Positions 42,980-61,657 of a stretch of DNA of 64,000 nucleotides are shown here, piece by piece (positions within the stretch are counted from its first letter, which is position 1; every line of letters starts with the position of its first letter). Both the position numbers and the translations under genes were made by a program. The notes under the pieces were generated by a model, which saw only the letters and a program-made list of their open reading frames with translations, did not search any database and was not told the DNA's origin. This DNA comes from Candidatus Omnitrophota bacterium (GTDB lineage Bacteria > Omnitrophota > Gorgyraeia > Zapsychrales > Fredricksoniimonadaceae): the NCBI GenBank assembly GCA_015233675.1, contig JADFXH010000007.1, positions 44,162 to 108,161 of the forward strand. The letters are read 5' to 3'.

Positions 42980-42980
42980 A

Positions 42981-44678: not shown

Positions 44679-45169
44679 TATACTTCCGCAACATCCTTGG
44701 TGACATTTTCAATTTCTTTTTCAAGATCAAGATTAACCGGCGCTTTTTTTTCGATCTGAGCCTTACTTTTAGTTTTTCTGACAGGACTTTTAGCGTTGGT
44801 CTTCTTACCCACGACTTTCTTTTTATGCGCAACAGGGACTTCAATAACAGCCTCTTTTTTCTGCAGGGTTGTTTTCTTGGATGAGCTCTGGAGGTGTCCT
44901 TCACCGACAGAATCCATCCCAGCCTTAAAAGACGCCCTTATTTCCCGCGTGCTTTTCTCAACGGTATCGGTCACCTGGCCCAATACAACCTCAGCCTTCT
45001 CACCAAAGGATTCACAAATATCCTGAGTTGCCACGACCATGCTTTTCAAAGGCTTCTTTTCTGCTACCTGGCCTAACTCCACAACCTTTTTGCAAAGAAA
45101 CCCCGTCTTGTACGAAAGGGTCTTTAAGAGCCCTATTATTTCATCTTTCTTACCTTTTTCTTTTACCAT
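44678..45169 (-). CDS. Lys-rich hypothetical protein (cluster-specific)
   Basis: 163 aa. It overlaps the upstream gene by 20 nt. No family was recognised. Confidence 0.45.
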   Translation of the reverse strand: MVKEKGKKDEIIGLLKTLSYKTGFLCKKVVELGQVAEKKPLKSMVVATQDICESFGEKAEVVLGQVTDTVEKSTREIRASFKAGMDSVGEGHLQSSSKKTTLQKKEAVIEVPVAHKKKVVGKKTNAKSPVRKTKSKAQIEKKAPVNLDLEKEIENVTKDVAEV

Positions 45170-46271
45170 AATTTTTATTCCTTTTTCTTTCGGGCATGAG
45201 CTTTTCTAATGCCTTCTCAGCCGCTTTTTTAACGTCTTGCTCTTTATCAGAAAGCAAATTCTTGACTACGGTCAGCGCTCCCTCGGGTTTAACGATTGAC
45301 AACATCTCCAGCAAACTTATACGGACATAAGGATTAGTGTCTTCCCAAGCTGTAATTGCCTTCTTAACACCTTCCTTGCCATAATAAATCCCCAAATAGG
45401 TCACGGCAAGCCCGCGGATATGCTCGTCACTGTCACTCAACAGGCCATCGAGAATCTTACGGTTCCTGTCACTCACATGACTGCCGAGCCCCTTGACCGC
45501 CGCTGTCCTGACCTTGGCATCAGCGTCATTCATGCCCAAGTCAAAGAATCCTTCAGCTTCGCCTTGTTTCATCCGTGATACATTCTTGATAACAGCAAGG
45601 CGGACCAGGCTGCTCTCATCCTTCATCGCAAATTCGTAAACCTGGTGCAGGATATCTTTCGGGGTAATATGGGCGATCTGGCCGATAGCGACCTCGCGTT
45701 CACGCTGGGTGCCCATTGAAAGCTGATTGATATTCTTTTCAAAAAGCCTCCTGTCCGCATCACAATTGAAACTGGCCGTCTCCAAAAGCCGGGTTAAAGT
45801 GTCATCCGGCCTGATCCTCTCCTCAACAAACGGAGAGCTCGCTGAACTTTCTTCCTCAACGGCTTTATTAACCTCAGATTCGACAGTACTCGTTTCTTCA
45901 AGCTCAATTTCGTCTTCTACTACGGCCTCTTGCTGGATCTCACCTTCATCTTCCTTTTCATCTTCTACTGCAGATTCCGCTTCAAGCTCATCTTCAACCT
46001 CATCTTCAATCTCATCTTCCTCTTGATAGACGGCTGTGTCATCCTCTGACTCTTCCTCATCTTCATCCTCAAGCTCCTCAATCTTCGTTATCCTTTCATC
46101 CAGATAATCCAAAAGCCTCGTAATCTTTTCAATCTCTTGTTCTTTTGGGCGGTCTTCAGATGCAAAACCAAAACTTATCTCTTTAGATTTATAAAGTTTA
46201 TAAACCGCTTCGCCGAACAAAAAGATCAACTTTCTCTGTTTAGACTTAAGTTCTTGCAGATGTTGATCCAT
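45150..46271 (-). CDS. acidic-domain plus HEAT-repeat protein
   Basis: RBS AGGAGAG lies 7 nt before the ATG. Residues ~65-150 are extremely Glu/Asp-rich (EELEDEDEEESEDD...EDEIEDEVEDELEAES...). The C-terminal HEAT units are DADAKVRTAAVKGL, DSDEHIRGLAVTYL, DTNPYVRISLLEML and DKEQDVKKAAEKAL. Confidence 0.65.
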   Translation of the reverse strand: MDQHLQELKSKQRKLIFLFGEAVYKLYKSKEISFGFASEDRPKEQEIEKITRLLDYLDERITKIEELEDEDEEESEDDTAVYQEEDEIEDEVEDELEAESAVEDEKEDEGEIQQEAVVEDEIELEETSTVESEVNKAVEEESSASSPFVEERIRPDDTLTRLLETASFNCDADRRLFEKNINQLSMGTQREREVAIGQIAHITPKDILHQVYEFAMKDESSLVRLAVIKNVSRMKQGEAEGFFDLGMNDADAKVRTAAVKGLGSHVSDRNRKILDGLLSDSDEHIRGLAVTYLGIYYGKEGVKKAITAWEDTNPYVRISLLEMLSIVKPEGALTVVKNLLSDKEQDVKKAAEKALEKLMPERKRNKNYGKRKR

Positions 46272-46381: not shown

Positions 46382-47140
46382 TTATCTTCGCCCTGAAAGA
46401 ATTGCCAGAACTTTTTTAATCCAATTTCCGCCCTTGTCTTTCTCATCAGCAGTCCTGTGGCAGCCCTCATCATTAGCTTCATTAAAATTCTTCCAAACGG
46501 ATATATTCGCCACAACATCCTGATCAAGGGCAATGCTTGATCCCTCGCATTCAATAACATATGTCGGATAATTCTGATGAAGCTTGACAATGACACCGGG
46601 GCGTATGCATAACCCATCGAGTTTGTGGATCTGCTGGTCGTTCTTACAATTAATATAAGCGATCCGGGCCGATTCTCCAAGCTTAATATCAGACAAAGGA
46701 ATTATGAAACTGGAAGCGCTCTTCATGGCCTGCCGGCAGCACTCACCCTCCGGTATAGGCATGCCGTGAGGGCATTCCTTAGGGTGTCCCAGAAGCGTAC
46801 AAATGCCGTTAACAAGCTCAAGTGAAACCGTATGCTCGAATTCACACGCTATCTGTTCAAGGTCTCCCCCGCCTAAAACATCGGCAACAAGCCGCTCCGC
46901 GAGCCGATGCGCCCTGATCAACTGACGGGCCCTTGCTTCGCCATCGGCTGTAAGTTTAATAATAGAGTCCTCTGGGTTTTGCTCAAGCATGCCTAGCAAA
47001 GAAAGCTCATTAATGATTTTGGAATCAAAAGAACGCTTCATGGTTTTCTTCAAAAAATCCAGCGAAGTCTCACCCTGCTCTTTCATATACCAGAGCTGCT
47101 CAATATGTTCGTCTTGTTCAACATTTCTTTCTATAGCCAT
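46382..47140 (-). CDS. DtxR/IdeR-family metal-dependent regulator with C-terminal FeoA/SH3-like domain
   Basis: A winged-helix N-terminus is followed by the LIRAHRLAERLVADVLG dimerisation/metal helix and EFEHTVS...HPKECPHGMPIP metal-site residues. The C-terminal FeoA-like region is LSDIKLGESARIAYI...GVIVKLHQ...IECEGSSIALD. Confidence 0.7.
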   Translation of the reverse strand: MAIERNVEQDEHIEQLWYMKEQGETSLDFLKKTMKRSFDSKIINELSLLGMLEQNPEDSIIKLTADGEARARQLIRAHRLAERLVADVLGGGDLEQIACEFEHTVSLELVNGICTLLGHPKECPHGMPIPEGECCRQAMKSASSFIIPLSDIKLGESARIAYINCKNDQQIHKLDGLCIRPGVIVKLHQNYPTYVIECEGSSIALDQDVVANISVWKNFNEANDEGCHRTADEKDKGGNWIKKVLAILSGRR

Positions 47141-48000
47141 ACCCGCTCCACCACTTTCCCGGCGCCCAAAGCTAAAACGCCATACAACATCAAGGCCAGC
47201 ACTGATGGCGATGATGAAATCTTCATTCTGAATGCTCCCAAAAATGCCAGAGGCTGATAATAAAAAGTTTTCTGAAAATTTGACCCCTTAAAACTTTGGC
47301 GCGGCAAAGCATCTATGTCGTTCAACCATGCTTTCCAGCGGGACTTCTCGGCGACAGTCAGCATCTGGACTTGTTGAGGCTTCTCAAATTGCACCACCTT
47401 GGCCTTCCAACCGTCAGTCAAAAGCAGCTCATCCTGCATGGGAAGATGATCTTCTGTCAAACCCTTAACAAATATCCGGCTCTCATAATCCGTAATCAGC
47501 GCTGTGGTTTTATCGAGCTTCACCGCGAAAGCTGTCCCCCTGACGCCGGCAATAGCGACAGGTGTACGCACCTTGAAGGTCGAGCCTTTCTCAAGATTAT
47601 CAAGTTTTAGCTTGATCTCGCCCTTATCCATAAAAAGTGTCGTGTCCTTCTGGATCCTGTTGCTTTCAAAAAATACCCGCGTATCGGCACCGATACGCAT
47701 GATATCTTTATAAACATCATCATAAGCGACTTCGACATAAGCACCCTTGCTTGTCGTGATTTCATCCTGCGGGTTTAAGAGCATGCCGGCACTTAGAACT
47801 ATCGCCTCCCCGCCGCGCTTAACAACGACACCGCCTTCGAAACGTACGATACGCGCGCGATCAGGGGTTTCGCTGGCCAAAAAATTGACCGCCAGAAGGA
47901 TTGCCAAGAGCGCCCCACCGGCCATTAAAATATGGGTAGAATTTGACGTATAACGTGCAATAAAATTAAAAACGATTTGTTTTTCAGAAGTCCAGCGCAT
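47131..48000 (-). CDS. membrane-anchored FecR-domain protein
   Basis: An N-terminal TM (ILMAGGALLAILLAVNFLA) is followed by VRFEGGVVVKRGGEAIVLSAGMLLNPQDEITTSKGAYVEVAYDD, a beta-rich FecR-type pattern. It overlaps the regulator gene by 10 nt. Confidence 0.5.
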   Translation of the reverse strand: MRWTSEKQIVFNFIARYTSNSTHILMAGGALLAILLAVNFLASETPDRARIVRFEGGVVVKRGGEAIVLSAGMLLNPQDEITTSKGAYVEVAYDDVYKDIMRIGADTRVFFESNRIQKDTTLFMDKGEIKLKLDNLEKGSTFKVRTPVAIAGVRGTAFAVKLDKTTALITDYESRIFVKGLTEDHLPMQDELLLTDGWKAKVVQFEKPQQVQMLTVAEKSRWKAWLNDIDALPRQSFKGSNFQKTFYYQPLAFLGAFRMKISSSPSVLALMLYGVLALGAGKVVERVWL

Positions 48001-48012
48001 TATACTCCTACA

Positions 48013-49977
48013 TTAGTGAGGCATCGTTAAAACTAGCAGCCAGTTAAGAGCTCCTGCCAGGATGAACGATGAGATAAAAATCAACGCCGCCATCGCCATC
48101 GCGGTTTTAAATCCCATCTCCCTGCCGATCGCGGTAACATTCGCCACACAAGGGAAAGAAATCGTTGTCACAACCACAGCAACAATAGACTGGACATAAT
48201 TCAATGACCCCGCATTCACCATCTTAAGGATAAGACCGGCGGCCGCTTCACGCCGGGCAAACGCAAGCAAGAAAACATCGACAATATCCTTAGGCAAACC
48301 CATCCAACCAACGATAAGAGGCGTCAACAGCTGTTTGATCAGATTCAACAAACCGGTCTTTTGAAAAGCAAAAAGACCGGCCGCAGATAACAAAAAAATC
48401 GGCAGGGCTTCCTGAAGAAAATCAGCAACGCGGTGGTAGGTTTTACGAAAAACCGCCTTTAAGCTTGGAAATCGCATTGGCGGGATCACCTGGATAAAAG
48501 AGCTTGCTTCTTTACTTTTGATCATCTTATTGAGGATTATCCCGGCCCCCATCTCGCAGAAGCCCAACATCGCAAAAACAATCAAAAAAGCGCTGATCCC
48601 CACCTTTGCAAGAATGGCCATGGAAATACCCAACTGCGCGGAACAAGGAATGGCAAACGCGATCAGGAAAACTGCAATGAACTTCTCCTTGGGAATCGTC
48701 AAGCTGCGCGCGCTCAAAGTCGCCATCGTCTTACAACCGAATCCCAAAACCAGCGAGGTGACCGCATTGCCCGGAATCCCAATCTTCGCAAAAATCCTTT
48801 TGGAAAAAACTGTAAAATTCGTAATATACCCGCTGTCTTCAAAACAACCAAAAATAAAAAAGAACACAGATAGAATAGGAAGTACGGTGCCTATGGCGTT
48901 AAAAAGACCAAGCGTTAATATGCCGTAGTCGCCGATCAAAAGGTCTTTCCAAAACGGCGGCAGGGTTAATTTTGATATCAAACTGGTCACTGGAAAAACG
49001 AGGAAGAAATCGATGAATTTATCGAGCGCTCCCGATACATAAACAACACTTAAATAAACGACAGCCATGAAAGCCAAAAAAATCGGTATCCCTAAAACAG
49101 GATCACGGCTGGCCCTTGTAAAATGATAAGAAAATCCCTGATACGTCATTTTCTGTTTCTTGATGACAGCCGCAGAAATTTGATCGACCCAACGGCTGCG
49201 CCTTTCGATGAAAACTTGATGAATATTCCCCTTCATCTGCCGCCGCACCTTGTTTGTTTCCTGACGTATAAGAGCGGCCCTTGGACTTCCAAATCTTTTT
49301 TCCAAAAACTTTTCGACGAATGGATCAGTCAACAGAAGCAGACTCGCGATTTTATATTTGAATTCCAAATCAAAAGGCAATTCCGCCGCCAACGCAATGA
49401 TGCATTTCTCTATCGCCAAACCATACTTAAGATCAAGAGACCCTTTGCGCGCGTGGCCTATGGCTTCTTTGATTTTCTCTTTGCCCAATCCGCGTGACGC
49501 TATTGATTCAACCACCGGTACGCCAATAATCCGCTCAAGGGCTTCGGAGTCGATCCAGATCCCCTTACGCGCCGTCTCATCCATGGAGTTAAGGACAATG
49601 ACCATCGGGGTCTCCAGTTCCAAGAGTTCGGCGGTCAACAGCAAAGATTGTTTATACTGGCTGGCATCAATGCATTGAAGAATAACATCCGGCGCCTCTG
49701 CTAAAATCATGTCACGGACCGCAATTTCTTCTTCGGAATGAATATAAAGGCAGTGCAGGCCGGGCGTATCGATGATCTCGTAATACTTATCTTTAATCCG
49801 TGTCAGTGACCGCCTCATTTCAACGGTCGTGCCGGGATAGTTGGCGACAATGTTATACTCGCCGGTTAAATTATTGAAAATCTGTGTTTTTCCTGTATTG
49901 GGAATCCCGATGATAGCGACCTTCTTCACCTTCGTCGCCTCGGGAACAGTAAGAATGGGGGGCTGGTTACTTTCCAT
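48013..49977 (-). CDS. feoB: ferrous iron transporter FeoB
   Basis: The N-terminal G-domain has IIGIPNTGKTQIFNNLTG (G1), DTPG (G3) and NSMD (G4). It is followed by the polytopic gate/permease domain. Confidence 0.85.
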   Translation of the reverse strand: MESNQPPILTVPEATKVKKVAIIGIPNTGKTQIFNNLTGEYNIVANYPGTTVEMRRSLTRIKDKYYEIIDTPGLHCLYIHSEEEIAVRDMILAEAPDVILQCIDASQYKQSLLLTAELLELETPMVIVLNSMDETARKGIWIDSEALERIIGVPVVESIASRGLGKEKIKEAIGHARKGSLDLKYGLAIEKCIIALAAELPFDLEFKYKIASLLLLTDPFVEKFLEKRFGSPRAALIRQETNKVRRQMKGNIHQVFIERRSRWVDQISAAVIKKQKMTYQGFSYHFTRASRDPVLGIPIFLAFMAVVYLSVVYVSGALDKFIDFFLVFPVTSLISKLTLPPFWKDLLIGDYGILTLGLFNAIGTVLPILSVFFFIFGCFEDSGYITNFTVFSKRIFAKIGIPGNAVTSLVLGFGCKTMATLSARSLTIPKEKFIAVFLIAFAIPCSAQLGISMAILAKVGISAFLIVFAMLGFCEMGAGIILNKMIKSKEASSFIQVIPPMRFPSLKAVFRKTYHRVADFLQEALPIFLLSAAGLFAFQKTGLLNLIKQLLTPLIVGWMGLPKDIVDVFLLAFARREAAAGLILKMVNAGSLNYVQSIVAVVVTTISFPCVANVTAIGREMGFKTAMAMAALIFISSFILAGALNWLLVLTMPH

Positions 49978-51258: not shown

Positions 51259-51813
51259 TTACTTATTAGGCTGAATCGGTAAAAACCCTTCCATCTCTCC
51301 TTCACCGATAAAAATAATACCCTGTTTCTTGCGCAAGCCCCGCATATAGGTTATCTTCGCATCTTTTTCCGGAGGAGCCTTGGCCAAAAGATCCTGGAAC
51401 TGCTGTAAACCGGTAATATCCTTGGTATTAAAGTTCAGAATGACATCGCCTTCTTTTAGTCCGGCCTTATCCGCCCATGAGTTACCCATGACACCCGTGA
51501 TCTTGACTTTGCCGCCGCCAACCTGGATTGCCTCAACACCCATGATTTTAATGAGCACCGGCGCATCCTGCCCTTGAGCAATTGGCGGTGCCCCGGGCAT
51601 TACCACCTGCTGTAATGCGCCCTGGTTGGAATAATATCCCTGTCCACTGCCGGGTACCGGACAATATGCACTCTGTTTAAACATATCCGATGTCCTGATT
51701 TCATGCAGAGCATCTTGGGCTGTATCCTGCACAGCGTTATTAGTAAATAACGCGATAAGGATCATAACAAAAAACGCCCCGGCGCATATACTAATAATAA
51801 GTTCTTTTTTCAT
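51259..51813 (-). CDS. membrane-anchored PDZ-domain protein
   Basis: The ATG at 51813 has AAAGGA 6 nt upstream. An N-terminal TM (ISICAGAFFVMILIALF) is followed by the PDZ core GVEAIQVGGGKVKITGVMGNSWADKAGLKEGDVILNFN. Confidence 0.6.
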   Translation of the reverse strand: MKKELIISICAGAFFVMILIALFTNNAVQDTAQDALHEIRTSDMFKQSAYCPVPGSGQGYYSNQGALQQVVMPGAPPIAQGQDAPVLIKIMGVEAIQVGGGKVKITGVMGNSWADKAGLKEGDVILNFNTKDITGLQQFQDLLAKAPPEKDAKITYMRGLRKKQGIIFIGEGEMEGFLPIQPNK

Positions 51814-51823
51814 TGGGAGTCCT

Positions 51824-52864
51824 TTACACAAAAAATAATTTAACCGCTAGTATCACAAGAATAACTACAAAAAGGTAAAGCGTTACTTTTGTATTCAACT
51901 TGGGCGCAATGCGCGCCCCTGCCTGCGCTCCGACGATGACACCAATCCCCATCCACATGGCCTCTGCATAACAGACATTTCCCAGAAACACATGCGGCAA
52001 AAGCGCGATGGCGCACGTCAGAAGCGTCACAAAATGGCTCGTCGCTGTCGCGACATGCGACGGATATCTCAAAAGAAAAATCAAAATCGGCACTTGGAAC
52101 ACGCCGCCGCCAATACCCAGAAACCCGCATAAGAATCCCAACAAAAGGTTCATTGAGATACCAAGCTTATCATTCGAATAATAATCATACTTGACGCCAA
52201 AGCTGTCCATAAATCTTACCCTGCGGTGTCCTGCGGCCTTGGCTTCCTTAAGCAAAACCTGTTGCTGCTCATCTGTTTTGTCAACCCTGCCGACACTCAT
52301 GATGGTATACACAGCCAAAAAGATCAGAAAAACGCCGAAGACTTCATTGAAAAACGTCAAATTGATCAGGTGATGCGTAAAGCTGGAGATAAGCGCCCCG
52401 GGCATGGCGGCAAGAGTGAATTGTATGCCGCCTTTATAATCGATCCTTTTTTGCATGGCATAACCGACACAACCAGACCCTGCATTTAAAAAAACGATAA
52501 AGAGCGATGTGGCTACCAGAAGTTCATTTTCCCAACCGAAAAATAAGACCAGCAACGGAAGAATAATAGGGCCTCCGCCAATCCCAACGATAGTTCCATA
52601 GCAGCCGACAATAAGACCGCTCACAAGCAAAAGCCACGCCGGTTGATCAGGAATAGCCGCAGGTGTATTAACTGCCCCTGCCTGCGGGAGAGCGGCCAGC
52701 ATTGACGGCTGTCCTGAAAAAGGAACCTGCATCGACTGCGGGGTCGGAGCCGCTGTTTTAGACGGAAGGAACATCGCAGCAAAAATCACAAGTACTATCG
52801 CGATAACAAGCCCTATCTTAAGATAACTCATCCAATTATAAACAGTTTCATTTTTATTGAACAT
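51824..52864 (-). CDS. mamO: TauE/SafE-family anion permease (MamO C-terminal-domain type)
   Basis: 346 aa with two internal repeats of 4 TM, carrying GIGGGPIILPLLV and GIGGGVFQVPILI motifs typical of TauE. Its position in the cluster matches the split mamO-Cter of deep-branching clusters. Confidence 0.5.
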   Translation of the reverse strand: MFNKNETVYNWMSYLKIGLVIAIVLVIFAAMFLPSKTAAPTPQSMQVPFSGQPSMLAALPQAGAVNTPAAIPDQPAWLLLVSGLIVGCYGTIVGIGGGPIILPLLVLFFGWENELLVATSLFIVFLNAGSGCVGYAMQKRIDYKGGIQFTLAAMPGALISSFTHHLINLTFFNEVFGVFLIFLAVYTIMSVGRVDKTDEQQQVLLKEAKAAGHRRVRFMDSFGVKYDYYSNDKLGISMNLLLGFLCGFLGIGGGVFQVPILIFLLRYPSHVATATSHFVTLLTCAIALLPHVFLGNVCYAEAMWMGIGVIVGAQAGARIAPKLNTKVTLYLFVVILVILAVKLFFV

Positions 52865-52918: not shown

Positions 52919-54721
52919 TTACGGAAGCATGCTTAAAAATATCAGGTAAATAGTCCCAATTGCAAGGACCATAAGAGCGACCGGGAATCCCCGGCGGCTG
53001 TAATTTGCAAAGGTCAAACCTTCATTCTTCTTGGGGTTTATCCCCAACTCCTCTACAAGAGTCTGAGAGACGATCCCTGCACTTGCCCCAGAAATGCAAG
53101 CACAAGCCCCGGCGATGGACCCAAGATTCAAGGCCCACCAGACAACATCCGTAAAATCAGCAAAACCTGAAGAAACAACAATAGGGACCAAAAAAGCCGT
53201 TGCCGGCCCGGAATTCAAAAGCGCCGTTAAAACTGTGGAAATCAGCATTAGAAAAATCGGATACAAAATCTTATTACCCATCGCCATCGTCAGAAGCATA
53301 TTGGAAATGACCTTCAAAAGGCCGGAATATAACGCTCCGCCGACAATAAGAAAAAGCGCGACAAAAAACAATATATCCATCAGGCTTATCTTTTTAATCA
53401 CGTCCCGGGCCTTCTGATTTTCAATAGCGAGCAGTAAAAACCCGCCACCCATCGCAATCGGCGCCAAGTGGACCCTAAACAACGGCAATATTATGAAAGC
53501 GACAAGGACGCATCCAAGAATAAAAAGAACCCTTTTGATCCGCGGCCAATCCATGTGCATATCCCGCAGTTCTTTTTCAACCTTCGAAAGAAAAGCCTTA
53601 TGGAGTTTCACTGACCTGATCTTGTCCTTGTGCCTCAATTCAAAAAACCACAAATACCAAAGGAAAATGGCTAAAAATACGCAACAGATCGGCCCCATGA
53701 CAATCAAAAAATCCAAAAACGATAAGCCAGCGCTTGATGCCATCAGCATGTTCGAAAAATCCCCTATCGGCGTAATGTTCCCACCGATGACTGAAGAAAT
53801 GATCTCAGCAATGACTACTGGAATAACGTCAAAATCCATGCCTCGGGCAGCATACACCGTGATCGGAATAATGACGAGAATGACCGAAATATTGTTCACG
53901 AACGCAGAGGAAATAAAAGTCATGACACACATACTCAAAATTACCTTGATCGAATCGGCTTTGGAGGCAACTATGATCTTCTTGGAAACATATTCAAAAA
54001 CACGCAGGTCTTCCAAAAATATGGTAAAAATGCTCATTCCTATATAAATGAAGATCGGGCTCACCCGAATGGCATCAAAAGCTTCGGACTGGTTGTAAAA
54101 CCCAAAGACCGAACCTGCAACCAGCATCAGTACCGCACCCAGCGTCACGCACACCGTGCGGTTAAAAAGGTTCAAAAAAAGCATGGTAAATGTGACTGCG
54201 ATGATGACCAAGACCACCAAAATATCACGCCCGCTGCCCCCCAAGATGTCGATGCCGGCATTGACAGGGATGGTATCGCTCATGTTTAAAGTCCTACCAT
54301 TACGGGAGATAACAAAGCTGATCTTGTCCCCGGGCTTGCTCTGTGACATAAGATACGCCATATGATTGGCTGACTGGACATCGATGCCGTTGCATTTAAG
54401 GATAACATCCCCGCGCCGAATATCAATGAGCCGGCGGGCAGAGCCTGCAGGCACATTGTTGACAAGGACCCCTGCCACCTGCGGAAGATTAAAGTCCCTC
54501 GCAATGATAGGATTAACGGTAATACCTTCAAATTCAATGGCATTGGTACCCCCCGACTGGGCAAGGCGCGGCGAGCCCCGCTGAGGCATATTCCTGGTAT
54601 CCATAAAAAGCGCGACCAAAACCACAATGACCACTAGGGCGATCGCTGCTTCCATGAACGGAAAATTCTTAAAACGCTTCAATTTGTCTTCGTCCATGGA
54701 TCTTCGGATGTCTAAAGCCAT
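52919..54721 (-). CDS. PDZ domain fused to ArsB/NhaD-type (CitMHS-like) ion permease; MamN-like
   Basis: 600 aa. An N-terminal TM is followed by a PDZ domain (GVLVNNVPAGSARRLIDIRRGDVILKCNGIDV...PGDKISFVISRNG), then about 11 TM spans with the two-fold permease architecture of arsenite/NhaD-type transporters. Confidence 0.55.
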   Translation of the reverse strand: MALDIRRSMDEDKLKRFKNFPFMEAAIALVVIVVLVALFMDTRNMPQRGSPRLAQSGGTNAIEFEGITVNPIIARDFNLPQVAGVLVNNVPAGSARRLIDIRRGDVILKCNGIDVQSANHMAYLMSQSKPGDKISFVISRNGRTLNMSDTIPVNAGIDILGGSGRDILVVLVIIAVTFTMLFLNLFNRTVCVTLGAVLMLVAGSVFGFYNQSEAFDAIRVSPIFIYIGMSIFTIFLEDLRVFEYVSKKIIVASKADSIKVILSMCVMTFISSAFVNNISVILVIIPITVYAARGMDFDVIPVVIAEIISSVIGGNITPIGDFSNMLMASSAGLSFLDFLIVMGPICCVFLAIFLWYLWFFELRHKDKIRSVKLHKAFLSKVEKELRDMHMDWPRIKRVLFILGCVLVAFIILPLFRVHLAPIAMGGGFLLLAIENQKARDVIKKISLMDILFFVALFLIVGGALYSGLLKVISNMLLTMAMGNKILYPIFLMLISTVLTALLNSGPATAFLVPIVVSSGFADFTDVVWWALNLGSIAGACACISGASAGIVSQTLVEELGINPKKNEGLTFANYSRRGFPVALMVLAIGTIYLIFLSMLP

Positions 54722-54736
54722 TATTTTACCCTCTCA

Positions 54737-55600
54737 TCATTTCGTTTGCGTTATCGCAACCTTGGCATTATTAAGCGCAGCCTCATCAATGGACTGGGCA
54801 GATAAAACTGTATCGTCCCTTTTAGGCTTTAAATAGTCCACAGAATCAGGATTGCCGGTCACACGATACGGTATGATATTGCCTTTGGTGACATCTTCGT
54901 CAACCTGTGCGTAATGAAACATTCTCTCTTTGTATCCAAAAAGCCAAGCATAGACACAACCCGGAAAAGTACGCACAGCGGCATGAAAAACACTGGCCGC
55001 CTTGTTGTACTCCATACGGCTGGCGGCAATACGGTCTTCACTAACAATAAGCGCGTCCATCAATTTCTGAAAATTCTGGCTTAATTTAAGGTCAGGATAC
55101 GCCTCAGCAACGGCCAGGAACTTGGATAGGGCATCTTCCATATTGCCCCCCCCATTTGTCGTCTTGGCTAAATCAAGAAGCCCGCCTTTCTTGAGCGTCT
55201 CAATAAGCTCTTCCGTTTTGCCTACGTTCTCTGCGCGCTTGTCTGCCATATACTCATACATCGTCCGTTCATGTTCCGCGTAAGCAATAACCATCCGGGC
55301 AAGATTAACAGCAAGATTTCTTTTTCTCTGTTGCTGCACTTCAATCTGGTGCTGTTCCATTTCCGTGAACCTTGACAGGTTGACGAACTTGTTAAAATAA
55401 TAAATACTGCCTCCGATACAAATGACGGCCGCGGCAAGACCCAGAAAAAGATATTTGTTCTCGAGCTTACTAAAGTTGATCTTGTTCCACCAATGTTTGC
55501 GTACCGGCCTCAACTCTTCAAAATCGCTTGGGAAAAGCCGTTTAACCGTATCTGATATGCGCATACTAATGCTCCCTCTACATGCGGGGCATATATCCAC
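54737..55600 (-). CDS. mamQ: LemA-family membrane protein (MamQ-like)
   Basis: A single TM (LFLGLAAAVICIGGSIYYF) is followed by a LemA-type helical domain (QQQRKRNLAVNLARMVIAYAEHERTMY ... AYPDLKLSQNFQKLMDAL..SEDRIAASRMEYN). It sits between the MamA-like gene and the permease gene. Confidence 0.6.
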   Translation of the reverse strand: MDICPACRGSISMRISDTVKRLFPSDFEELRPVRKHWWNKINFSKLENKYLFLGLAAAVICIGGSIYYFNKFVNLSRFTEMEQHQIEVQQQRKRNLAVNLARMVIAYAEHERTMYEYMADKRAENVGKTEELIETLKKGGLLDLAKTTNGGGNMEDALSKFLAVAEAYPDLKLSQNFQKLMDALIVSEDRIAASRMEYNKAASVFHAAVRTFPGCVYAWLFGYKERMFHYAQVDEDVTKGNIIPYRVTGNPDSVDYLKPKRDDTVLSAQSIDEAALNNAKVAITQTK

Positions 55601-55612: not shown

Positions 55613-56515
55613 TTATTTATAATTACTCACTCTAACTTTTTTTACCCCCCCCGTGCGCTTCTGGCCTTTTTCAACATCCATGGCCTTTTTGAAGCATACG
55701 ATGGCATCTTTATGATTGCCGGAGGTTTCATACACGAATCCCAGGGCTTGGTAATATACGGCCTCGCGAGGCTCAAGGTCAATGGCTTTCTTGTAACATT
55801 TCTTAGCCTCTTCGATCTGTTCGGTCTTCTCATAACAGGTGCCCAGATGATAATAAATATCAGCCTCATCCGGATGTATTTCGCTCGCCTTTTTAAGAAA
55901 CGTAATAGCTTCGGGATATTCCTCAATGGAAAGAAGGCAGTCACCCAACTCGGTGATAAGGTTCGGATCATCTTTTTCCAGCTTGTCGGCTTTTCTCAAA
56001 TACTCAATGGCCTCCTTATATTCTTCCATATTCTTGTGGCACATGGCGATCATGTAAAGGATATTAGCATCCTTCTCATTTCCCTCTTCGAGATAAGAAA
56101 GAAACGAATCCTTGGCTTTTTCGTAATCACCTTTATCAAAAAACTTAAACCCTTGCTCCTTATTAAAATTGACCTTGGCCTCAGGCGGCGCCACAAATAT
56201 GCTCTGATAGGCATTCGAAAGTCCATTCATGATCCGTTCAGCCGCTGAAACAGACGCGAATGCGGCAACCTTCAGCTTCTCTTGGATCTGGGGCAATGGC
56301 TGGTCTTTCTTGACACTTTTGGATTTAGCAGGATGTTTCTTGCCCACCGATTTATTTTTTTCAAAGTGGTCGGACACGTTACCAAGATCAGCCACATCAG
56401 CTTCACTGGAAGAAACATCCGCTTCAACAGCGTCGATAGCACTCTTCTTTGCCTCAACGTCTTCCCTTTTATGTTTTTTAAGCTCTTCCATAACTTCCTC
56501 CATCAATTTCGTCAT
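55613..56515 (-). CDS. mamA: TPR-repeat protein (MamA-like)
   Basis: The C-terminal ~190 aa form 5 consecutive 34-aa TPR units (GDYEKAKDSFLSYLE, EEYKEAIEYLRKA, EEYPEAITFLKKA, EQIEEAKKCYKKAIDL, GNHKDAIVCFKKAMDV). It lies immediately downstream of the CDF pair. Confidence 0.6.
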   Translation of the reverse strand: MTKLMEEVMEELKKHKREDVEAKKSAIDAVEADVSSSEADVADLGNVSDHFEKNKSVGKKHPAKSKSVKKDQPLPQIQEKLKVAAFASVSAAERIMNGLSNAYQSIFVAPPEAKVNFNKEQGFKFFDKGDYEKAKDSFLSYLEEGNEKDANILYMIAMCHKNMEEYKEAIEYLRKADKLEKDDPNLITELGDCLLSIEEYPEAITFLKKASEIHPDEADIYYHLGTCYEKTEQIEEAKKCYKKAIDLEPREAVYYQALGFVYETSGNHKDAIVCFKKAMDVEKGQKRTGGVKKVRVSNYK

Positions 56516-56556: not shown

Positions 56557-57468
56557 TTACTTCTTTAATAAAACCGGCGCTTTTGCTTTTACTACCAAAT
56601 TTTCCTTACACGTAAAAGAAATAGTCACATCCTTTATCTGGACAAAACGGCGCATCAGAGCGGCACGCACTTCACGGCATATGGCATGCCCTTCCTTGAC
56701 CGTCCTTTTGGGATCAATAATGATCTCCATATCGATCCAGGCCTTTTGCCCAACCCTGCGGGCATGGATGAAATTAACCCCCTTGACTTCCTTATATTGA
56801 AGGGCCTCTTCCTCAATAAGCTTTTCCTTATTACCCGGCAGTGATTCGTCAATAAGATTCCTGAAAGCTTGAATGCCTAATACAATCGCTGACTTCATGA
56901 TCATGAGTCCGACAAAGATAGCTGCTAACGCGTCAAGTATGGGGAAACCTATGTTCGCCGCAAAAACGCCGACCAAAACCGCAATGCTTGAAAGCATGTC
57001 CGAGCGGTTCTCCTGTGCATTAGCAACCATTGCCGGAGAGTTCAATTTCTTCCCCGCGCAAAAACCGTAAGAGGACAGGATATAGTTTGCGATGATCGCA
57101 ACCAAAGCGGCGAAAAAAGCAGCCATGTGAGGAGGTCGGATGACTCCGCTCGTGATCACCACGATCGCATCGACTAAGATCATCACTGAAATGCCAAAAA
57201 GCAATACGTAAGCAAAAACAGCGCCAAGGAATTCCGACTTACCTAAACCCCAGGGATATTTCTTGTCATCCTTATGCCTGGAGAGTGCCACCGTGATAAT
57301 GACCATGAAGGTCGTGACCACGTCTGTCCCCGAATGGATACCGTCGGCAACAAGGCCTTTGGACTTGGCGATATGCCCGACGTAAATCTGAAAAATTGCC
57401 AGCGTTAAATTCCCCATAAGGACGACCCAGGGAACTATCCTGCCGCATCGGATACATTTATCTTGCAT
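56557..57468 (-). CDS. mamB: cation diffusion facilitator (MamB-like)
   Basis: N-terminal CIRCG (CxxC), TM2 ADGIHSGTDV (canonical metal site), KYPWGLGKSEF and a C-terminal ferredoxin-like CTD. It is tandem with a second CDF. Confidence 0.65.
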   Translation of the reverse strand: MQDKCIRCGRIVPWVVLMGNLTLAIFQIYVGHIAKSKGLVADGIHSGTDVVTTFMVIITVALSRHKDDKKYPWGLGKSEFLGAVFAYVLLFGISVMILVDAIVVITSGVIRPPHMAAFFAALVAIIANYILSSYGFCAGKKLNSPAMVANAQENRSDMLSSIAVLVGVFAANIGFPILDALAAIFVGLMIMKSAIVLGIQAFRNLIDESLPGNKEKLIEEEALQYKEVKGVNFIHARRVGQKAWIDMEIIIDPKRTVKEGHAICREVRAALMRRFVQIKDVTISFTCKENLVVKAKAPVLLKK

Positions 57469-57478: not shown

Positions 57479-58375
57479 CTACTCCGCCGGAACAACTTGA
57501 ATGGCAATGTTGCCGATATACCTGTCTTCACTGCGCAAAAAAGCCCTGACCGATTGATTGATCGCCTTTGCCTCAAGGACGCTGATGTTCGGATCCATCT
57601 GCATAGTTATATCAAGAATTATCTTCCTGCCTGTCTGGCGAGCCCTCACCTTACTGACATGTTTAATGCCTTTCACCGAGAGAACCCTGTTCTTGATGAT
57701 CTCAAGATAATTCTCGGGAAGATTCGTGTCCATGATGCCAAGAAGGCCGTCTTTAAGGATACCGAAACTGCCATGAAGGACATGCGCGCATTCAAAAATA
57801 GCAATCGCAGGGTCAACCCAATGCAGGCCGAAGCGCGTCAAGATGACGCCGATGGCAACCAGGATCGATGAAACAACGTCGATCTTGTTATGCTCCGCAT
57901 GGGCCTTAAGCGAGGGGCTGTTGAGCTCCTTGCCTCCGCAATGCGAAAATTTAAAAAGAAGGCCGCTGATAATAGCGCTTAAGATCGCCACAAAAAAAAC
58001 GACCGTGTGCTGGACAATGATGATTTTTTTAGCAATGACAATGAACGAACTTAAAATAAGAGCCACGGTGCCTAAGATCATCAAAACGCTCATCCCAACC
58101 TGGGCAATGAACTCGATCTTACCGTAACCGTAAGGATACTTCTCATCCGCCGGCTTTTTTGAATACCTGACACCCAGAATAACAACAATGGAAGAACCGA
58201 CGTCACTCAGGTTGCACAAGCCGCTGCCGATCAAAGCACGGCTGCGCCCCAAAAAACCGACAAAAAGCTTAAAAGCCGCAAGGAAAACGTTAGCAACTAT
58301 CCCCCAAATGATCGTCTTGCGGGCACAAGCCTCACATTTTTTCGGATCTTTTATCTTCTCAAGCTTCATCTTCAA
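57479..58375 (-). CDS. mamM: cation diffusion facilitator with degenerate TM2 site (MamM-like)
   Basis: N-terminal CEACA (CxxC), TM2 GSGLCNLSDV in place of HxxxD, KPADEKYPYGYGKIEF and TM5 HAEHNKIDV. Confidence 0.6.
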   Translation of the reverse strand: MKMKLEKIKDPKKCEACARKTIIWGIVANVFLAAFKLFVGFLGRSRALIGSGLCNLSDVGSSIVVILGVRYSKKPADEKYPYGYGKIEFIAQVGMSVLMILGTVALILSSFIVIAKKIIIVQHTVVFFVAILSAIISGLLFKFSHCGGKELNSPSLKAHAEHNKIDVVSSILVAIGVILTRFGLHWVDPAIAIFECAHVLHGSFGILKDGLLGIMDTNLPENYLEIIKNRVLSVKGIKHVSKVRARQTGRKIILDITMQMDPNISVLEAKAINQSVRAFLRSEDRYIGNIAIQVVPAE

Positions 58376-58680: not shown

Positions 58681-59862
58681 TTAAAATATCGTTCCCGTTC
58701 CCGGCAATTTTTTCAACATAACATGGCAATTATTGCACTTGCCGCGATATTCATGGGGAGCAACAGCTCCCTTCATGATAGGCGGAGGATTTGGCAATAT
58801 GTCCCCGGCATCTGTCGGAAGCTGTCCGCCGGTCGTCATAATAATATGACAAACCGTGCACGCCTTGTTCCTGCTGCGATGAGGGCTTAAAGCGCCCGGC
58901 GTGATCGGCTGGGCCGCCTCATTTTGCGAAAAACCCATTGTCCTGACCGACGAGAAGGTAAATTCCATCAACTGCCCGCGCCTTGACACCAGCACTTGTG
59001 CTTTGTGCCTGTTCTTCACCCTTCTGGTGGCTTCAGTAAATGCCGCAAGGTCAGGTGTCGCAAAATCGTCCACCGCAACAACCATATCCCCTGCCAATAT
59101 CCCGGATTCAGCAGACTCAAGCGAAATCTCATCAACCAGAAGGCCTTTGGTATCAGGAGGAATTTTATATTCTTTAGACAACTCCGGCGTTGTTGGGATA
59201 AGCTCCAGCCCCAGCCAATGGCCTTCAATAAATTCTTTTTGTGCCGCGCCCTGTTCTTTAGGTGTCGGCAGATTAATTTGAGGCGCATTTACAGAAGGAG
59301 CAATCGCGCCCGCCTCGGCAGTTTCCGCAGGCGAACGGTTCGCGAATGCCGCAGGCAGCATTCCCTGAGGCTGATTAGAAGCAGGAGCCGCAACTGCCAG
59401 CGCACCCATTTTCGGGTCGATATTTAGCATTTTCTTGATCTTATCATGCAAGCCCAATTTATTCTCCATCGTGATATAAAGAGGCTGGCCGTTGCGAAGT
59501 ATGTCCAGAAGAAAGCCCGGTTCATGGCTTACTGTCCTTGCGACTTTAAGAAAATCTGATAAGTTTAATATTTTCTGATTATTGATCGCCTTGATAAGAT
59601 CACCACTACGAACGCCGGCTGAGTAGGCAGGGCCCTCACACCAATTGACCACAACACCTTGTTCATCCTTGGGAATGCCAAATTCCATCCTCATCGCAGG
59701 CGTCACATTCGAAACAGAGATCCCTCCCCATTCCGCATCTCCGGCGCCAATATGCATAAGCGCGGCAATAAAGAAAAGGGCCAAGGCCGCAAGCCCGATA
59801 ATCAGCCAAAGCTGCAACCACCTTTTTTGACGCATTTGTTTAAGTTCAAATTCAATAGCCAT
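58681..59862 (-). CDS. mamP: MamP-like protein: TM anchor, two PDZ domains, two magnetochrome (CxxCH) motifs
   Basis: PDZ cores are GVVVNWCEGPAYSAGVRSGDLIKAINN and GLLVDEISLESAESGILAGDMVVAVDD. The magnetochrome-type motifs are SPHRSRNKACTVCH (CxxCH at 58846-58860) and APHEYRGKCNNCH (58723-58737). Confidence 0.7.
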   Translation of the reverse strand: MAIEFELKQMRQKRWLQLWLIIGLAALALFFIAALMHIGAGDAEWGGISVSNVTPAMRMEFGIPKDEQGVVVNWCEGPAYSAGVRSGDLIKAINNQKILNLSDFLKVARTVSHEPGFLLDILRNGQPLYITMENKLGLHDKIKKMLNIDPKMGALAVAAPASNQPQGMLPAAFANRSPAETAEAGAIAPSVNAPQINLPTPKEQGAAQKEFIEGHWLGLELIPTTPELSKEYKIPPDTKGLLVDEISLESAESGILAGDMVVAVDDFATPDLAAFTEATRRVKNRHKAQVLVSRRGQLMEFTFSSVRTMGFSQNEAAQPITPGALSPHRSRNKACTVCHIIMTTGGQLPTDAGDILPNPPPIMKGAVAPHEYRGKCNNCHVMLKKLPGTGTIF

Positions 59863-60251: not shown

Positions 60252-61538
60252 TTATTTCCCCCCACCAATAACAATACGCGCAGAATTCGGGTCCTGCTGT
60301 CCTGCAAAATTCTGCTGCGTTTGATTGTTCTGCATCATATTCTGATTATTCTGCGCTCCCATTGAAGATTCCAATATCTGGTGGCAATTGGAACACACGC
60401 CCCGATAAGCATGCGGCAGGGTCGCGTCGCGCGTGATCGGAGGAGCCTGTGTTGTTGGCTGCGTCATAGCGACCTGATTGCCATAATTGCCGTTGCCGTA
60501 ATAGGCATTCTGATTTTGAGCAGGCACCATAGCGGCCTGATTGCCATAATTGCCGTTACCGTAATATCCATTGGGCTGAACATTATATTGAAAATTTTGA
60601 TATTGAGGAGCCATCTGGTTATATTGCGGGGCGGTAGGCTGCATATTATTGGGCTGTTGATAGTAGCCTGGCTGTTGATACATTCCTGCCTGCCCCTGCA
60701 TGGCACCAGCTTGTATTCTTGGAATTGGGCAATATGGGTTGTTCCCCATGCCCTGTCCCTGCATATATTGACCACCCTGACCATAGGCCACTTGTGTATT
60801 CTCAACAACGCCTTGAGGCGCTTGAAAATTCTGATATTGGGGAGCCATCTGATTATATGATTGAGCGCCAGCCTGCATTCTAGGAATCGGGCAGTACGGG
60901 TTATTTCCCATGCCCTGACCCTGCATATATTGACCACCCTGACCAAACGCCACCTGTGTATTGTCAACAACACCCTGAGGTGTTTGCACAGGAACATAGG
61001 CAGGTTGAACTGTGCCATCAACAGGCTGAGGTGATGCTGATATCCTTGCCTGCCTGTAAAGCTTGACGACTTTCTGTGCACGGCCCTGATATCCGCCGAA
61101 TACCCTGATACCGAATTGCATTAAAATGTTATAATCTTGCGGAACGATATTCCCGACAATAACAGCTTCTTCCCCTTTACTGGCAACCAGATAAACAAGC
61201 TGAGTACCGGAGGCCCCGCCTCGATAGGGATTCTTGACGGCTTCAACAAGTTTCCCTGACAAAGGATTGACCACCAGGAAATAACGCGCTTCGTTTAATG
61301 TCGGAGCCACGTTAGATGCCAGGGACTGCCCGTCGGTTGCAATTACAATCATCCCGCAGGCGGGATTGCCCTGCATGGCATTTTTGGCATCTGGTGAAAA
61401 TAAGGCATAAAGGCCAACAATCAGCACCACCAAAATCGCACCAAAAATGAAAAAGGTGTTCAGGTCGGTATTTTTAAACTTCGACATGAATTCCTCAAAG
61501 GATTTTTCAAAACTTTTCCCTTGCGGTTTTTTTACCAT
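60252..61538 (-). CDS. TM anchor + NifX/NifB-C-like (Nitro_FeMo-Co type) domain + Q/N/G/Y-rich repeat region + single magnetochrome motif
   Basis: The ATG at 61538 has GGAGGG 5 nt upstream. The NifX-like region is IVIATDGQSLASNVAPTLNEARYFLVVNP...KNPYRGGASGTQLVYLVASKGEEAVIVGNIVPQDYNILMQFGIRVF. The low-complexity region has 54-aa repeats. The C-terminal LPHAYRGVCSNCH carries CxxCH at 60381-60395. Confidence 0.6.
   Translation of the reverse strand: MVKKPQGKSFEKSFEEFMSKFKNTDLNTFFIFGAILVVLIVGLYALFSPDAKNAMQGNPACGMIVIATDGQSLASNVAPTLNEARYFLVVNPLSGKLVEAVKNPYRGGASGTQLVYLVASKGEEAVIVGNIVPQDYNILMQFGIRVFGGYQGRAQKVVKLYRQARISASPQPVDGTVQPAYVPVQTPQGVVDNTQVAFGQGGQYMQGQGMGNNPYCPIPRMQAGAQSYNQMAPQYQNFQAPQGVVENTQVAYGQGGQYMQGQGMGNNPYCPIPRIQAGAMQGQAGMYQQPGYYQQPNNMQPTAPQYNQMAPQYQNFQYNVQPNGYYGNGNYGNQAAMVPAQNQNAYYGNGNYGNQVAMTQPTTQAPPITRDATLPHAYRGVCSNCHQILESSMGAQNNQNMMQNNQTQQNFAGQQDPNSARIVIGGGK
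60702..60980. repeat. 162-bp (54-aa) tandem coding repeat, ~1.7 copies
   Basis: PQGVVDNTQVAFGQGGQYMQGQGMGNNPYCPIPRMQAGA... is repeated as PQGVVENTQVAYGQGGQYMQGQGMGNNPYCPIPRIQAGA. The DNA copies are near-identical (for example CCCATGCCCTG(A/T)CCCTGCATATATTGACCACCCTGACC). Confidence 0.8.
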
Positions 61539-61563
61539 ATAATCCCTCCATATGCCGCTGATT

Positions 61564-61657
61564 GTCATCCTGAGTGCAACGAAGGATCTTAAGACTCTTA
61601 AGATTCTTCGGCAAATATAACGATTGCCCGGTTTAAGGGCCTTCGCCTCAGAATGAC
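61564..61657. repeat. GTCAT-type palindromic element, two inverted arms with an insert
   Basis: GTCATCCTGAGTGCAACGAAGGATCTTAAG ... GGCCTTCGCCTCAGAATGAC lies in the gap between the PDZ gene stop (61664) and the start at 61538. Confidence 0.65.

Follow-up and report, generated by a model that had tools for sequence, protein, structure and literature searches.

An Omnitrophota magnetosome gene cluster encodes a MamN-clade permease fused to an HtrA/MamE-type PDZ domain

In reviews and structure-prediction papers MamN appears as an unfused protein of 437 amino acids, which has been modelled on VcINDY and proposed, from weak homology, to be a proton exporter (PMC3905215). Deletion of mamN in Magnetospirillum leads to empty or partly filled vesicles (PMC3905215, PMC4902198), and the AMB-1 deletion leads to empty membranes, about 18% of them oversized, for which the authors raise a link to the MamE checkpoint (PMC8833152). 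MamN has also been reported in Magnetococcia (PMC11950176), and a preprint on Elusimicrobiota gives the name MamN to a magnetochrome-bearing protein of NORP122, in a text that mentions magnetochromes but not PDZ domains (bioRxiv 10.1101/2022.07.08.499144). MamN is needed for mineral formation in Magnetospirillum, and the label "proton exporter" is a guess. To our knowledge, the function of MamN is known from deletion phenotypes only, all of them from Magnetospirillum. Here we describe a 600-amino-acid protein encoded on the minus strand of a 64,000-nucleotide stretch of Omnitrophota DNA (contig JADFXH010000007.1 of assembly GCA_015233675.1; the window, in whose numbering positions are given). 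In this protein, a permease that belongs to the MamN clade is preceded by a hydrophobic helix and a PDZ domain, and the same fusion is a fixed feature of a group of magnetosome gene clusters.

The reading frame is unbroken from its ATG at 54721 to its stop codon at 52919, and its product is 100% identical to NCBI entry P0001, which carries the label 'Candidatus Omnitrophica bacterium' and comes from a metagenome-assembled genome (MAG). Pfam searches detect two domains, PDZ_2 over aa 84-147 (E 7e-9, 36.3 bits; cutoff 27) and CitMHS over aa 180-533 (E 1.3e-45, 156.4 bits; gathering cutoff 31.9), with the Pfam ArsB model slightly below its threshold (21.3 against 22.2). We modelled the protein with AlphaFold2 using 32 homologues as input, which gave a mean predicted local distance difference test (pLDDT) score of 76.9 and a predicted template modelling (pTM) score of 0.69. 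The model consists of an N-terminal helix (aa 22-39), a PDZ fold (approximately aa 62-152) and a polytopic helical domain (aa 162-598); the N-terminal helix is hydrophobic in 32 of the 32 aligned homologues. Thus the open reading frame (ORF) list, Pfam and the structural model all confirm what a first-pass annotation of this DNA had described, namely a single 600-aa ORF with an N-terminal transmembrane helix, a PDZ core and a polytopic permease of about 430 aa. The elements of the gene are as follows.

52919..54721, minus strand: whole ORF of the PDZ-fused MamN-clade permease, 600 aa plus stop (ORF list; Pfam PDZ_2 and CitMHS; NCBIfam best family MamN)
54729..54735, minus strand: Shine-Dalgarno-like GAGAGGG, 8 nt upstream of the ATG (read from the sequence)
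54659..54721, minus strand: N-terminal tail, aa 1-21, with 6 Lys/Arg, predicted to be cytoplasmic (charge count; topology inferred)
54605..54658, minus strand: signal-anchor transmembrane helix FMEAAIALVVIVVLVALF, aa 22-39 (AlphaFold2 helix; mean hydropathy 2.92)
54266..54538, minus strand: HtrA/MamE-type PDZ domain, aa 62-152, predicted to be luminal/periplasmic (Pfam PDZ_2, PDB sequence matches, Foldseek)
52928..54238, minus strand: permease domain, aa 162-598 (437 aa), IT-superfamily elevator fold, MamN clade (matches to CitMHS, MamN and ArsB 10tp_A)
53885..53902, minus strand: hairpin-1 tip FVNNIS, aa 274-279 (column statistics and model helix boundaries)
53750..53785, minus strand: broken-helix motif GGNITPIGDFSN, aa 313-324 (alignment and column statistics)
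53549..53635, minus strand: central Lys/Arg-rich loop and amphipathic helix, aa 363-391, with 9 Lys/Arg, between the inverted-repeat halves and predicted to be cytoplasmic
53201..53218, minus strand: hairpin-2 tip LNSGPA, aa 502-507 (column statistics)

When the model is compared with the PDB using Foldseek, the best match is ArsB of Leptospirillum ferriphilum (10tp_A; E 1e-13, target-normalised TM-score 0.82), followed by the DASS/SLC13 elevator transporters NaS1, VcINDY, NaCT and INDY (probability 1.0 for VcINDY, NaS1 and NaCT), while the N-terminal part matches PDZ1 of DegQ. The model indicates that the permease is an ArsB/NhaD/CitMHS-type secondary transporter with an elevator fold, predicted to consist of two inverted repeats with re-entrant hairpins. 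The repeat architecture claimed in the first-pass annotation is therefore borne out by the fold matches to ArsB and DASS, but at the level of sequence it is weak: the N- and C-terminal halves align in register, with the FVNNIS tip opposite LLNSGPA, at an hhalign E of only 0.06. Although the window protein resembles ArsB (PDB 10tp) and DASS/SLC13 proteins (VcINDY, 4f35) in this inverted-repeat fold with two hairpins, it is only 11-18% identical to them, it carries Asn in place of the hairpin-tip Asp, and those families have no PDZ domain.

Family models and phylogeny place the permease with MamN. The NCBIfam MamN model (NF040989) matches the window protein at 244.6 bits, with aa 168-596 aligned to model positions 4-435 of 437. 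Second among transporter families comes ArsB at 32.8 bits, and the NCBIfam ArsB models as a whole reach 31-33 bits against cutoffs of 457-760. When 1.84 billion representatives were searched by phmmer with the permease half as query, 2,940 matches were returned, and the family scoring and architecture survey of permease relatives reported here covered the best 150 of these. Among these 150, P0098, a canonical MamN, scores above the curated MamN cutoff at 571 bits, and P0116, P0129 and P0120, which are of proteobacterial type, fall close below it at 453-489 bits. MamN is also the best family for the fused proteins that were scored, at 342-349 bits.

Neighbour joining was applied to 138 permease domains (representatives clustered at 50% identity; 420 alignment columns; 200 bootstraps). 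The resulting tree separates, with 100% bootstrap support, 55 MamN-like sequences from 83 ordinary permeases, which are unfused and about 425 aa long. The 55 comprise all the fused forms, including the window protein, and the canonical MamN group (98% support); the MamN of proteobacteria, which is unfused, forms a single branch among the fused forms. A small sister group also lies inside the 55, and its one inspected member (P0124) is outside any magnetosome cluster; we set this group aside, and the magnetosome-linked set is therefore the remaining 48. Column statistics on the 138 permeases identify the residues, in window numbering, by which the MamN-like clade differs from its ordinary relatives.

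Position 276, first hairpin tip: Asn in the MamN-like clade, Asp (93%) in ordinary relatives
Positions 503-505, second hairpin tip: Asn-Ala-Gly (N-A/S-G) in the clade, Asp-Asn-Ile in ordinary relatives
Position 322: Phe in the clade, Pro in ordinary relatives
Position 449: Asp in the clade, Thr in ordinary relatives
Position 499: Thr in the clade, Ser in ordinary relatives
Positions 539-540: Ser-Ser in the clade, Gly-Asn in ordinary relatives
Position 549: Gly in the clade, Asn in ordinary relatives

The window protein has the clade residues N276, F322, D449, T499, N503 and G505. As far as residue patterns allow a judgement, the acidic-to-amide changes at both hairpin tips, together with the new Asp, argue for a changed substrate or coupling ion across the whole MamN clade. 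Membership in ArsB or DASS is ruled out by the family scores and by the Asp-to-Asn changes at the hairpin tips. We conclude that the window protein belongs to the MamN clade but is not canonical MamN. The first-pass annotation had called the permease MamN-like and had allowed that it might instead belong to an unrelated family. Its view is upheld by the profile searches, in which CitMHS and MamN are the best matches (244.6 bits for MamN against about 33 for ArsB), and by the fully supported split that unites the protein with canonical MamN and separates it from ordinary ArsB/NhaD-like permeases.

We next consider how widely the fusion occurs. A word-indexed protein search found approximately 50 cluster representatives with PDZ and CitMHS domains, all 598-611 aa long and 45-100% identical to the window protein; they come from independent NCBI, JGI, ENA and Logan assemblies, and nearly all are labelled Omnitrophica or Omnitrophota. 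The 32 homologues used for the model (45-89% identity) can be aligned collinearly over their full length, and residues of the PDZ domain, the junction (P152) and the permease are invariant among them. We also scanned one genome per GTDB species (n = 185,579) with the peptide patterns AFD[AS]Ix[ML]SPI and [AS]GPA[TAS][AV]F[FL][IV]P and obtained 31 loci, with no non-magnetotactic lineage among the matches in these genomes. The fused protein is encoded at 21 of the 31, in MAGs labelled Omnitrophota or Planctomycetota. Most of these 21 MAGs have names of the form nXXX_binN, as used for the MAGs of Lin et al. 2020 (PMC7602337). Permease-only proteins of 28-32% identity account for 10 of the 31 loci, in Magnetococcales and one Zetaproteobacteria MAG, and one of the 31 is an unfused paralogue (L025). 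By tblastn, the gene order MamM-MamB-MamA-MamQ-[PDZ-permease]-TauE-small PDZ is found in every Omnitrophota/Planctomycetota-type locus with enough flanking sequence, and again in a KSB1 MAG. The PDZ-permease fusion is thus a fixed feature of Omnitrophota/Planctomycetota-type clusters and not a peculiarity of one genome.

The first-pass annotation took the surrounding cluster to be of a deep-branching type, and it is a non-proteobacterial (Omnitrophota) magnetosome cluster. The view of the annotation that MamN is limited to Alphaproteobacteria does not hold, given the reports from Magnetococcia (PMC11950176) and from the Elusimicrobiota preprint and the Magnetococcales and Zetaproteobacteria MAGs in our scan. 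The same permease clade is PDZ-fused in several phyla. Its suggested survey of other clusters located the fusion in 21 GTDB-species loci and in other phyla, so the suggestion that the fusion is new survives only in part: relatives labelled KSB1, Elusimicrobiota and Fibrobacteria show that it is not unique to this genome. We found no text in the literature (figure labels are not searchable) on a PDZ domain on MamN, on MamN in Omnitrophota clusters or on the range of fused architectures, and the PDZ-MamN fusion appears to be undescribed. One table has a serine-protease category "MamN/MamE" (PMC8784154), which may reflect such fusions. The current NCBI labels of the fused proteins are only "PDZ domain-containing protein" or "SLC13 family permease", and the signature residues and the two peptide patterns can serve as markers for annotating magnetosome clusters in metagenomes.

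Two observations concern copy number within this group. The unfused paralogue (L025, 1521-2957 of that locus, in an uncultured Planctomycetia MAG; P0082) lacks the PDZ domain and is nested inside the PDZ-fused Omnitrophota-type clade; therefore, the PDZ domain has been lost at least once, or a permease-only copy has been duplicated. The L025 gene lies outside the mamMBAQ block; its neighbours are a gene for a CDF transporter of 395 aa and one that resembles the EcsC-family gene of L002. In MAG nDJH6bin5 there are two MamM-MamB-MamA-MamQ-PDZ-permease-TauE blocks (L013 and L021, on contigs JADFYJ010000024.1 and JADFYJ010000001.1), whose permeases are 75% and 76% identical to the window protein. 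These duplicate blocks mean that a single genome has two magnetosome clusters or that two strains were merged in the bin.

Fusions are likewise present in the nearest relatives beyond the Omnitrophota family. Most are metagenomic sequences, and the gene context was inspected for some of them. Their architectures are listed here.

PDZ-permease: P0084-P0087, P0089 and P0094 (P0085 from a KSB1 MAG)
PDZ-magnetochrome (2-3)-PDZ-permease: P0088, P0092, P0109 and P0113
Magnetochrome-PDZ-permease: P0100
Trypsin-PDZ-permease: P0090, P0091, P0095, P0103 and P0115 (P0110, trypsin only)

In P0105 only the N-terminal PDZ domain is detected, and P0104 has two PDZ domains and no magnetochrome. The PDZ-magnetochrome-type fusions are labelled Elusimicrobiota and Fibrobacteria. 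On the permease tree, the magnetochrome group forms a clade with 100% bootstrap support and the trypsin group another with 97%. The N-terminal part of P0088 matches the MamP model at 174 bits, and P0088, P0092, P0105, P0109/P0240 and P0113, which carry a MamP-like module on a MamN-type permease, are in effect single-chain MamP-MamN proteins. The Elusimicrobiota 'MamN' (NORP122; P0088 and P0109/P0240, with P0092 under a Fibrobacteria label) resembles the window protein in its permease clade and in having a luminal extension that ends in a PDZ domain by the permease. However, those proteins have the whole MamP-like module (PDZ, two to three magnetochromes, second PDZ) and a cleavable signal peptide, whereas the window protein has one PDZ domain and an anchor that is predicted to remain uncleaved.

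The trypsin-bearing fusions (P0090, P0091, P0095, P0103, P0110 and P0115; 783-859 aa) are MamO-like modules placed on a MamN-type permease and not on TauE. None of the six keeps the catalytic triad, with Asp missing from every one and His and Ser each missing from five, and we regard the trypsin domains as pseudoproteases. The triad of MamO itself was reportedly found to be lost by Hershey et al. in 2016. MamO, the trypsin-PDZ-permeases and the window protein share a design in which a luminal HtrA-derived module sits on a magnetosome transporter. The window protein differs in having no trypsin domain (no match) and, from MamO, in having a MamN-type transporter; the TauE permease of the window is a separate gene at 51824-52864.

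Both fusion contexts inspected, those of P0090 and P0085, are magnetosome clusters. The P0090 locus (L005, 8598-10964) has MamQ, MamI, MamE, a CDF transporter and two chromate-transporter-family genes. The P0085 locus is a KSB1 cluster with its genes ordered as in the window: L006 (GCA_042564965.1, contig JBHPKY010000010.1, a KSB1 MAG) contains MamE..MamP, a LapA-domain gene, MamM, MamB, MamA, MamQ, the PDZ-permease, TauE and FeoB. A search of the full-text literature found no paper linking KSB1 to magnetosome clusters, and the KSB1 cluster may represent an unreported magnetotactic lineage, horizontal transfer or a binning error.

Some permeases of the MamN-like clade that lack a fusion bear additions of another kind. 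P0097, P0099, P0102, P0114, P0117, P0106, P0112 and P0121 have an extra N-terminal transmembrane helix of 40-80 aa without a PDZ domain, and could be intermediates in the gain or loss of the luminal module. P0106 (L040) adjoins a LapA-domain gene and a CDF transporter, a cluster-like setting, and the context of P0099 (L038) is ambiguous (a PAS kinase, a HEAT protein and large unassigned proteins).

We tried to learn from the PDZ domains whether the fusion arose once. The family PDZ profile did not discriminate, with 41-53 bits for MamE PDZ domains and 13-62 bits for permease-proximal ones, and a neighbour-joining tree of 43 PDZ domains, in which deep nodes have less than 40% bootstrap support, gave no information on single versus multiple fusion. 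One tentative scenario, which we regard as doubtful though worth stating, is that a luminal HtrA-derived module was original to the MamN permease or joined it early, so that the unfused proteobacterial MamN would be a secondary reduction. The fusions would then be 'Rosetta stone' evidence that MamN forms one complex with MamP-type iron oxidation and MamE/MamO-type modules, and the non-canonical PDZ domain, with Glu where the loop Gly would stand and an invariant His120, would have iron or a luminal partner as its ligand and would tie mineral nucleation directly to ion export.

From three independent lines of evidence, we infer that the N-terminus is cytoplasmic, that the anchor crosses the membrane once, that the PDZ domain lies in the magnetosome lumen and that the permease starts and ends on the luminal side. 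The magnetochrome-type homologues P0104, P0105, P0109 and P0113 begin with signal peptides, and magnetochrome-bearing homologues carry CXXCH haem-binding motifs. Attachment of c-type haem takes place on the periplasmic side. Because signal peptides and c-type haem modules are found there, the segment just before the permease should be outside the cytoplasm. When the model helices are mapped on the DASS/ArsB fold, repeat 1 runs from outside to inside, the central loop is cytoplasmic and repeat 2 ends outside. The distribution of charge is of the same sense, with approximately 29 Lys/Arg in the predicted inside loops, nine of them in aa 363-391 alone, against 3 in the outside loops when the PDZ domain is excluded. 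Helix aa 22-39, corresponding to TM1 of VcINDY, would take the cytoplasmic N-terminus across the membrane and leave the PDZ domain and the start of the permease luminal.

The PDZ domain itself resembles those of MamE and the HtrA proteins DegP, DegQ and DegS in sequence and fold, on a chain that has no protease domain. Its sequence matches in the PDB are DegP-like (7e-10), DegQ (5e-8) and AlgW, and its NCBIfam matches are degP_htrA_DO, DegS and MamE. A profile built from the PDZ domains of this fused family scores the PDZ domain of the window MamE at 53 bits, which makes a MamE/HtrA origin likely as judged by sequence comparison. Across the 32 homologues, V69, A74, L79, G84, G93, R103, D105, N111, S117, H120, L124 and R140 are invariant; S117, H120 and L124 belong to the predicted ligand-binding helix, and the R103-G-D105 turn is likewise invariant. 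We considered whether the PDZ domain binds the C-terminus of its own chain, which is predicted to lie on the same side, and did not favour this; the chains end in ..FLSMLP, ..PGIK or ..PIVS, which are not of a conserved PDZ-ligand type.

Given these data, we consider it probable that the gene is an Omnitrophota-type MamN to which a signal anchor and an HtrA/MamE-type PDZ domain have been added, and that the luminal PDZ domain keeps the transporter by the iron-redox and protease modules or by its dimer partner. As mineral forms, the permease would carry a small ion across the membrane of the magnetosome, and the luminal PDZ domain would hold it by MamP, MamE, the small PDZ proteins or its own dimer partner; alternatively, the PDZ domain may aid assembly of the obligate dimer of this fold. 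Iron oxidation and the nucleation of crystals would then be spatially coupled to removal of the ion. Other lineages would achieve this coupling covalently, with a whole MamP-like or MamO-like module fused to the permease. Tethering of the transporter to the PDZ/protease network, as the first-pass annotation had suggested, is plausible, and the MamP-like and MamE/MamO-like fusions lend it indirect support. They are likewise comparative evidence for the MamN-MamE checkpoint link. The recurrent fusions outside Proteobacteria lead to the hypothesis that MamN works at the luminal face, where it touches the iron-redox and protease machinery.

Several features weigh against this reading. One is that the window protein scores below the curated equivalog cutoff for MamN (244.6 bits against 500) and is 28-32% identical to Magnetococcales MamN. 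Another is that branching inside the 55-sequence clade is poorly supported, with bootstraps below 35%, which leaves orthology versus ancient paralogy, and the ancestral state of the fusion, unsettled. The predicted substrate site also departs from the clade: the window protein is off the consensus at positions 315, 316, 318, 323, 539, 540 and 547, where distant family members keep it, so that it reads GGNITPIGDFSN (with N315, I316, P318 and S323) against GGASxMxGDFPN, and AGACAC against AGSSA. These points, along with the different gene context of the unfused paralogue L025, would fit a permease of ArsB/NhaD/CitMHS type, for example for an anion or arsenite, that was recruited independently and is not an orthologue of MamN, in which case conclusions drawn from MamN would not carry over. 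We judge this improbable, because a node with 100% bootstrap support unites the permease with canonical MamN, because the signature residues are common to both and absent from the 83 ordinary relatives, and because the gene is always found within magnetosome clusters and beside the TauE gene, while the sister-group member P0124 is outside such clusters. Moreover, the family peptide patterns match only MAGs of magnetotactic lineages. Compared with MamN of Magnetospirillum and Magnetococcales, then, the window protein is alike in permease clade, hairpin-tip residues, D449, predicted fold and TauE adjacency, its gene lying directly upstream of the TauE-bearing gene just as mamN precedes mamO in Magnetococcales. 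It differs in its approximately 30% identity, in its 160 extra N-terminal residues (anchor and PDZ; 600 aa against about 437), in its substrate-site motifs and in gene position, which is after mamQ and not, as for the canonical gene, after mamM. That the ORF is a PDZ gene and a permease gene joined by sequencing or assembly error, a frameshift that the first-pass annotation had raised, has a negligible probability. We found no evidence for such a joining error; stand-alone small PDZ genes do occur in the same cluster. The two-domain architecture is conserved unbroken in the 32 aligned homologues, well beyond what chance would give. A frameshift, mis-assembly or joining of two genes is ruled out by the 598-611-aa architecture in about 50 independent assemblies, at 21 GTDB loci and in other phyla, and by the invariant junction residue P152.

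Further points against the main reading concern the PDZ domain. The AlphaFold2 linkers (aa 35-60 and 153-160) have low confidence, so the placement of the PDZ domain relative to the permease is unreliable, and the Gly of the carboxylate-binding loop is absent. In a hand extension beyond the printed phmmer alignment with DegQ, A61-I62-E63-F64 stands opposite L-L-G-I, and family members have Glu, Ser or His where the Gly would be. It is therefore not certain that the ligand is a classical C-terminal peptide. The main mechanistic rival to tethering is that the PDZ domain is a regulatory sensor or gate as in DegS and DegP, in which binding of a peptide tail, or possibly of a metal ion at the conserved Glu63/His120 region, on the luminal side would switch the transporter on or off or mark it for processing by MamE. 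HtrA-family PDZ domains act as allosteric sensors, and this one is of the HtrA type, with an invariant S117, H120 and L124 in its predicted binding helix and a loop residue, mostly Glu, that points to a ligand of a non-classical kind. Other magnetosome proteins are processed by MamE, and the AMB-1 study raised a link between MamN and MamE (PMC8833152). We nevertheless think gating unlikely, since the PDZ-permease linker is short and of low model confidence and the MamP-like fusions point to co-localised activities. The other rivals are less likely still. A cytoplasmic PDZ domain, linking the transporter to MamA or actin-like filaments, would be allowed by the ambiguous charge around the first helix, which is preceded by 6 Lys/Arg and 4 acidic residues and followed by several Arg, and a reported interaction between a MamE PDZ and the MamB C-terminal domain (cited in PMC3905215) shows that arguments on PDZ topology have been disputed in this system. 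However, the homologues whose corresponding segment carries signal peptides and c-type haem modules, together with the fold mapping and the inside-positive permease loops that put the permease N-terminus outside, make a cytoplasmic location very improbable.

The derived motifs at the predicted substrate site are shared within a subgroup. GGNITPIGDFSN and AGACAC (aa 313-324 and 535-541; 53750-53785 and 53100-53120) are found in the window protein and in relatives down to about 57% identity, and on this pattern the substrate of the window protein and its close relatives could differ from that of other MamN proteins.

The genes surrounding the PDZ-permease are a magnetosome gene cluster of an Omnitrophota MAG. 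On the minus strand, their order is MamE..MamP-MamM-MamB-MamA-MamQ-[PDZ-permease]-TauE-PDZ..FeoB, as detailed below.

62296-63681, minus strand: MamE, trypsin and PDZ (domain search)
61664-62299, minus strand: PDZ protein (domain search)
60252-61568, minus strand: magnetochrome and Nitro_FeMo-Co protein, 438 aa (Nitro_FeMo-Co E 2.8e-7)
58681-59862, minus strand: MamP, PDZ and 2 magnetochromes (domain search)
57479-58375, minus strand: MamM-like CDF transporter (NCBIfam MamM, 239 bits)
56557-57468, minus strand: MamB-like CDF transporter (NCBIfam MamB, 226 bits)
55613-56515, minus strand: MamA (NCBIfam MamA, 142 bits)
54737..55600, minus strand: MamQ, LemA family, directly upstream of the PDZ-permease (Pfam LemA; NCBIfam MamQ, 111 bits)
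51824..52864, minus strand: TauE/SafE permease, directly downstream of the PDZ-permease (Pfam TauE, E 4e-61; MamO model positions 373-648)
51259..51831, minus strand: small membrane-anchored PDZ protein (Pfam PDZ_2/PDZ_6)
48013-49977, minus strand: FeoB, directly after the mam genes
47131-48000, minus strand: FecR-domain protein
46382-47140, minus strand: DtxR-type repressor with a FeoA domain
41270-46271: HEAT-repeat proteins
39998-40759, minus strand: ParA/MinD-type ATPase
39211-40023, minus strand: coiled-coil protein
36641-38032 and 38134-39186, minus strand: two tandem actin-like proteins, Pfam Volactin (E about 1e-80)

The ATG of the PDZ-permease lies 15 nt past the MamQ stop codon, and the adjacency of these two genes is kept in all Omnitrophota-type loci, as is the small PDZ gene after TauE. 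The TauE/SafE permease is the counterpart of the C-terminal half of MamO as a separate gene. Besides the PDZ-permease, the window cluster encodes four PDZ proteins (MamE, MamP and two small ones). Two proteins without assignment lie between the small PDZ gene and FeoB, and FeoB occupies the equivalent position in several related loci. Downstream of the mam genes, the Volactin, coiled-coil, ParA/MinD-type and HEAT-repeat genes probably form the part of the cluster that organises the chain (MamK/Mad28-like).

Other candidate proton handlers are present elsewhere in the window. A Na+/H+ exchanger family protein (15335-16540, minus strand) and a membrane H+-pyrophosphatase (21942-24356, plus strand) are encoded 30-37 kb from the PDZ-permease, amid large PAS/GGDEF/EAL and CHASE histidine-kinase genes (16759-21744 and 27052-31497); within the 64-kb window we saw no link between these two genes and the magnetosome cluster. 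Within the cluster, the gene between the PDZ protein and MamP pairs a magnetochrome with a Nitro_FeMo-Co (dinitrogenase FeMo-cofactor-binding-type) domain, an unusual combination that recurs in L002/L003 and in L006.

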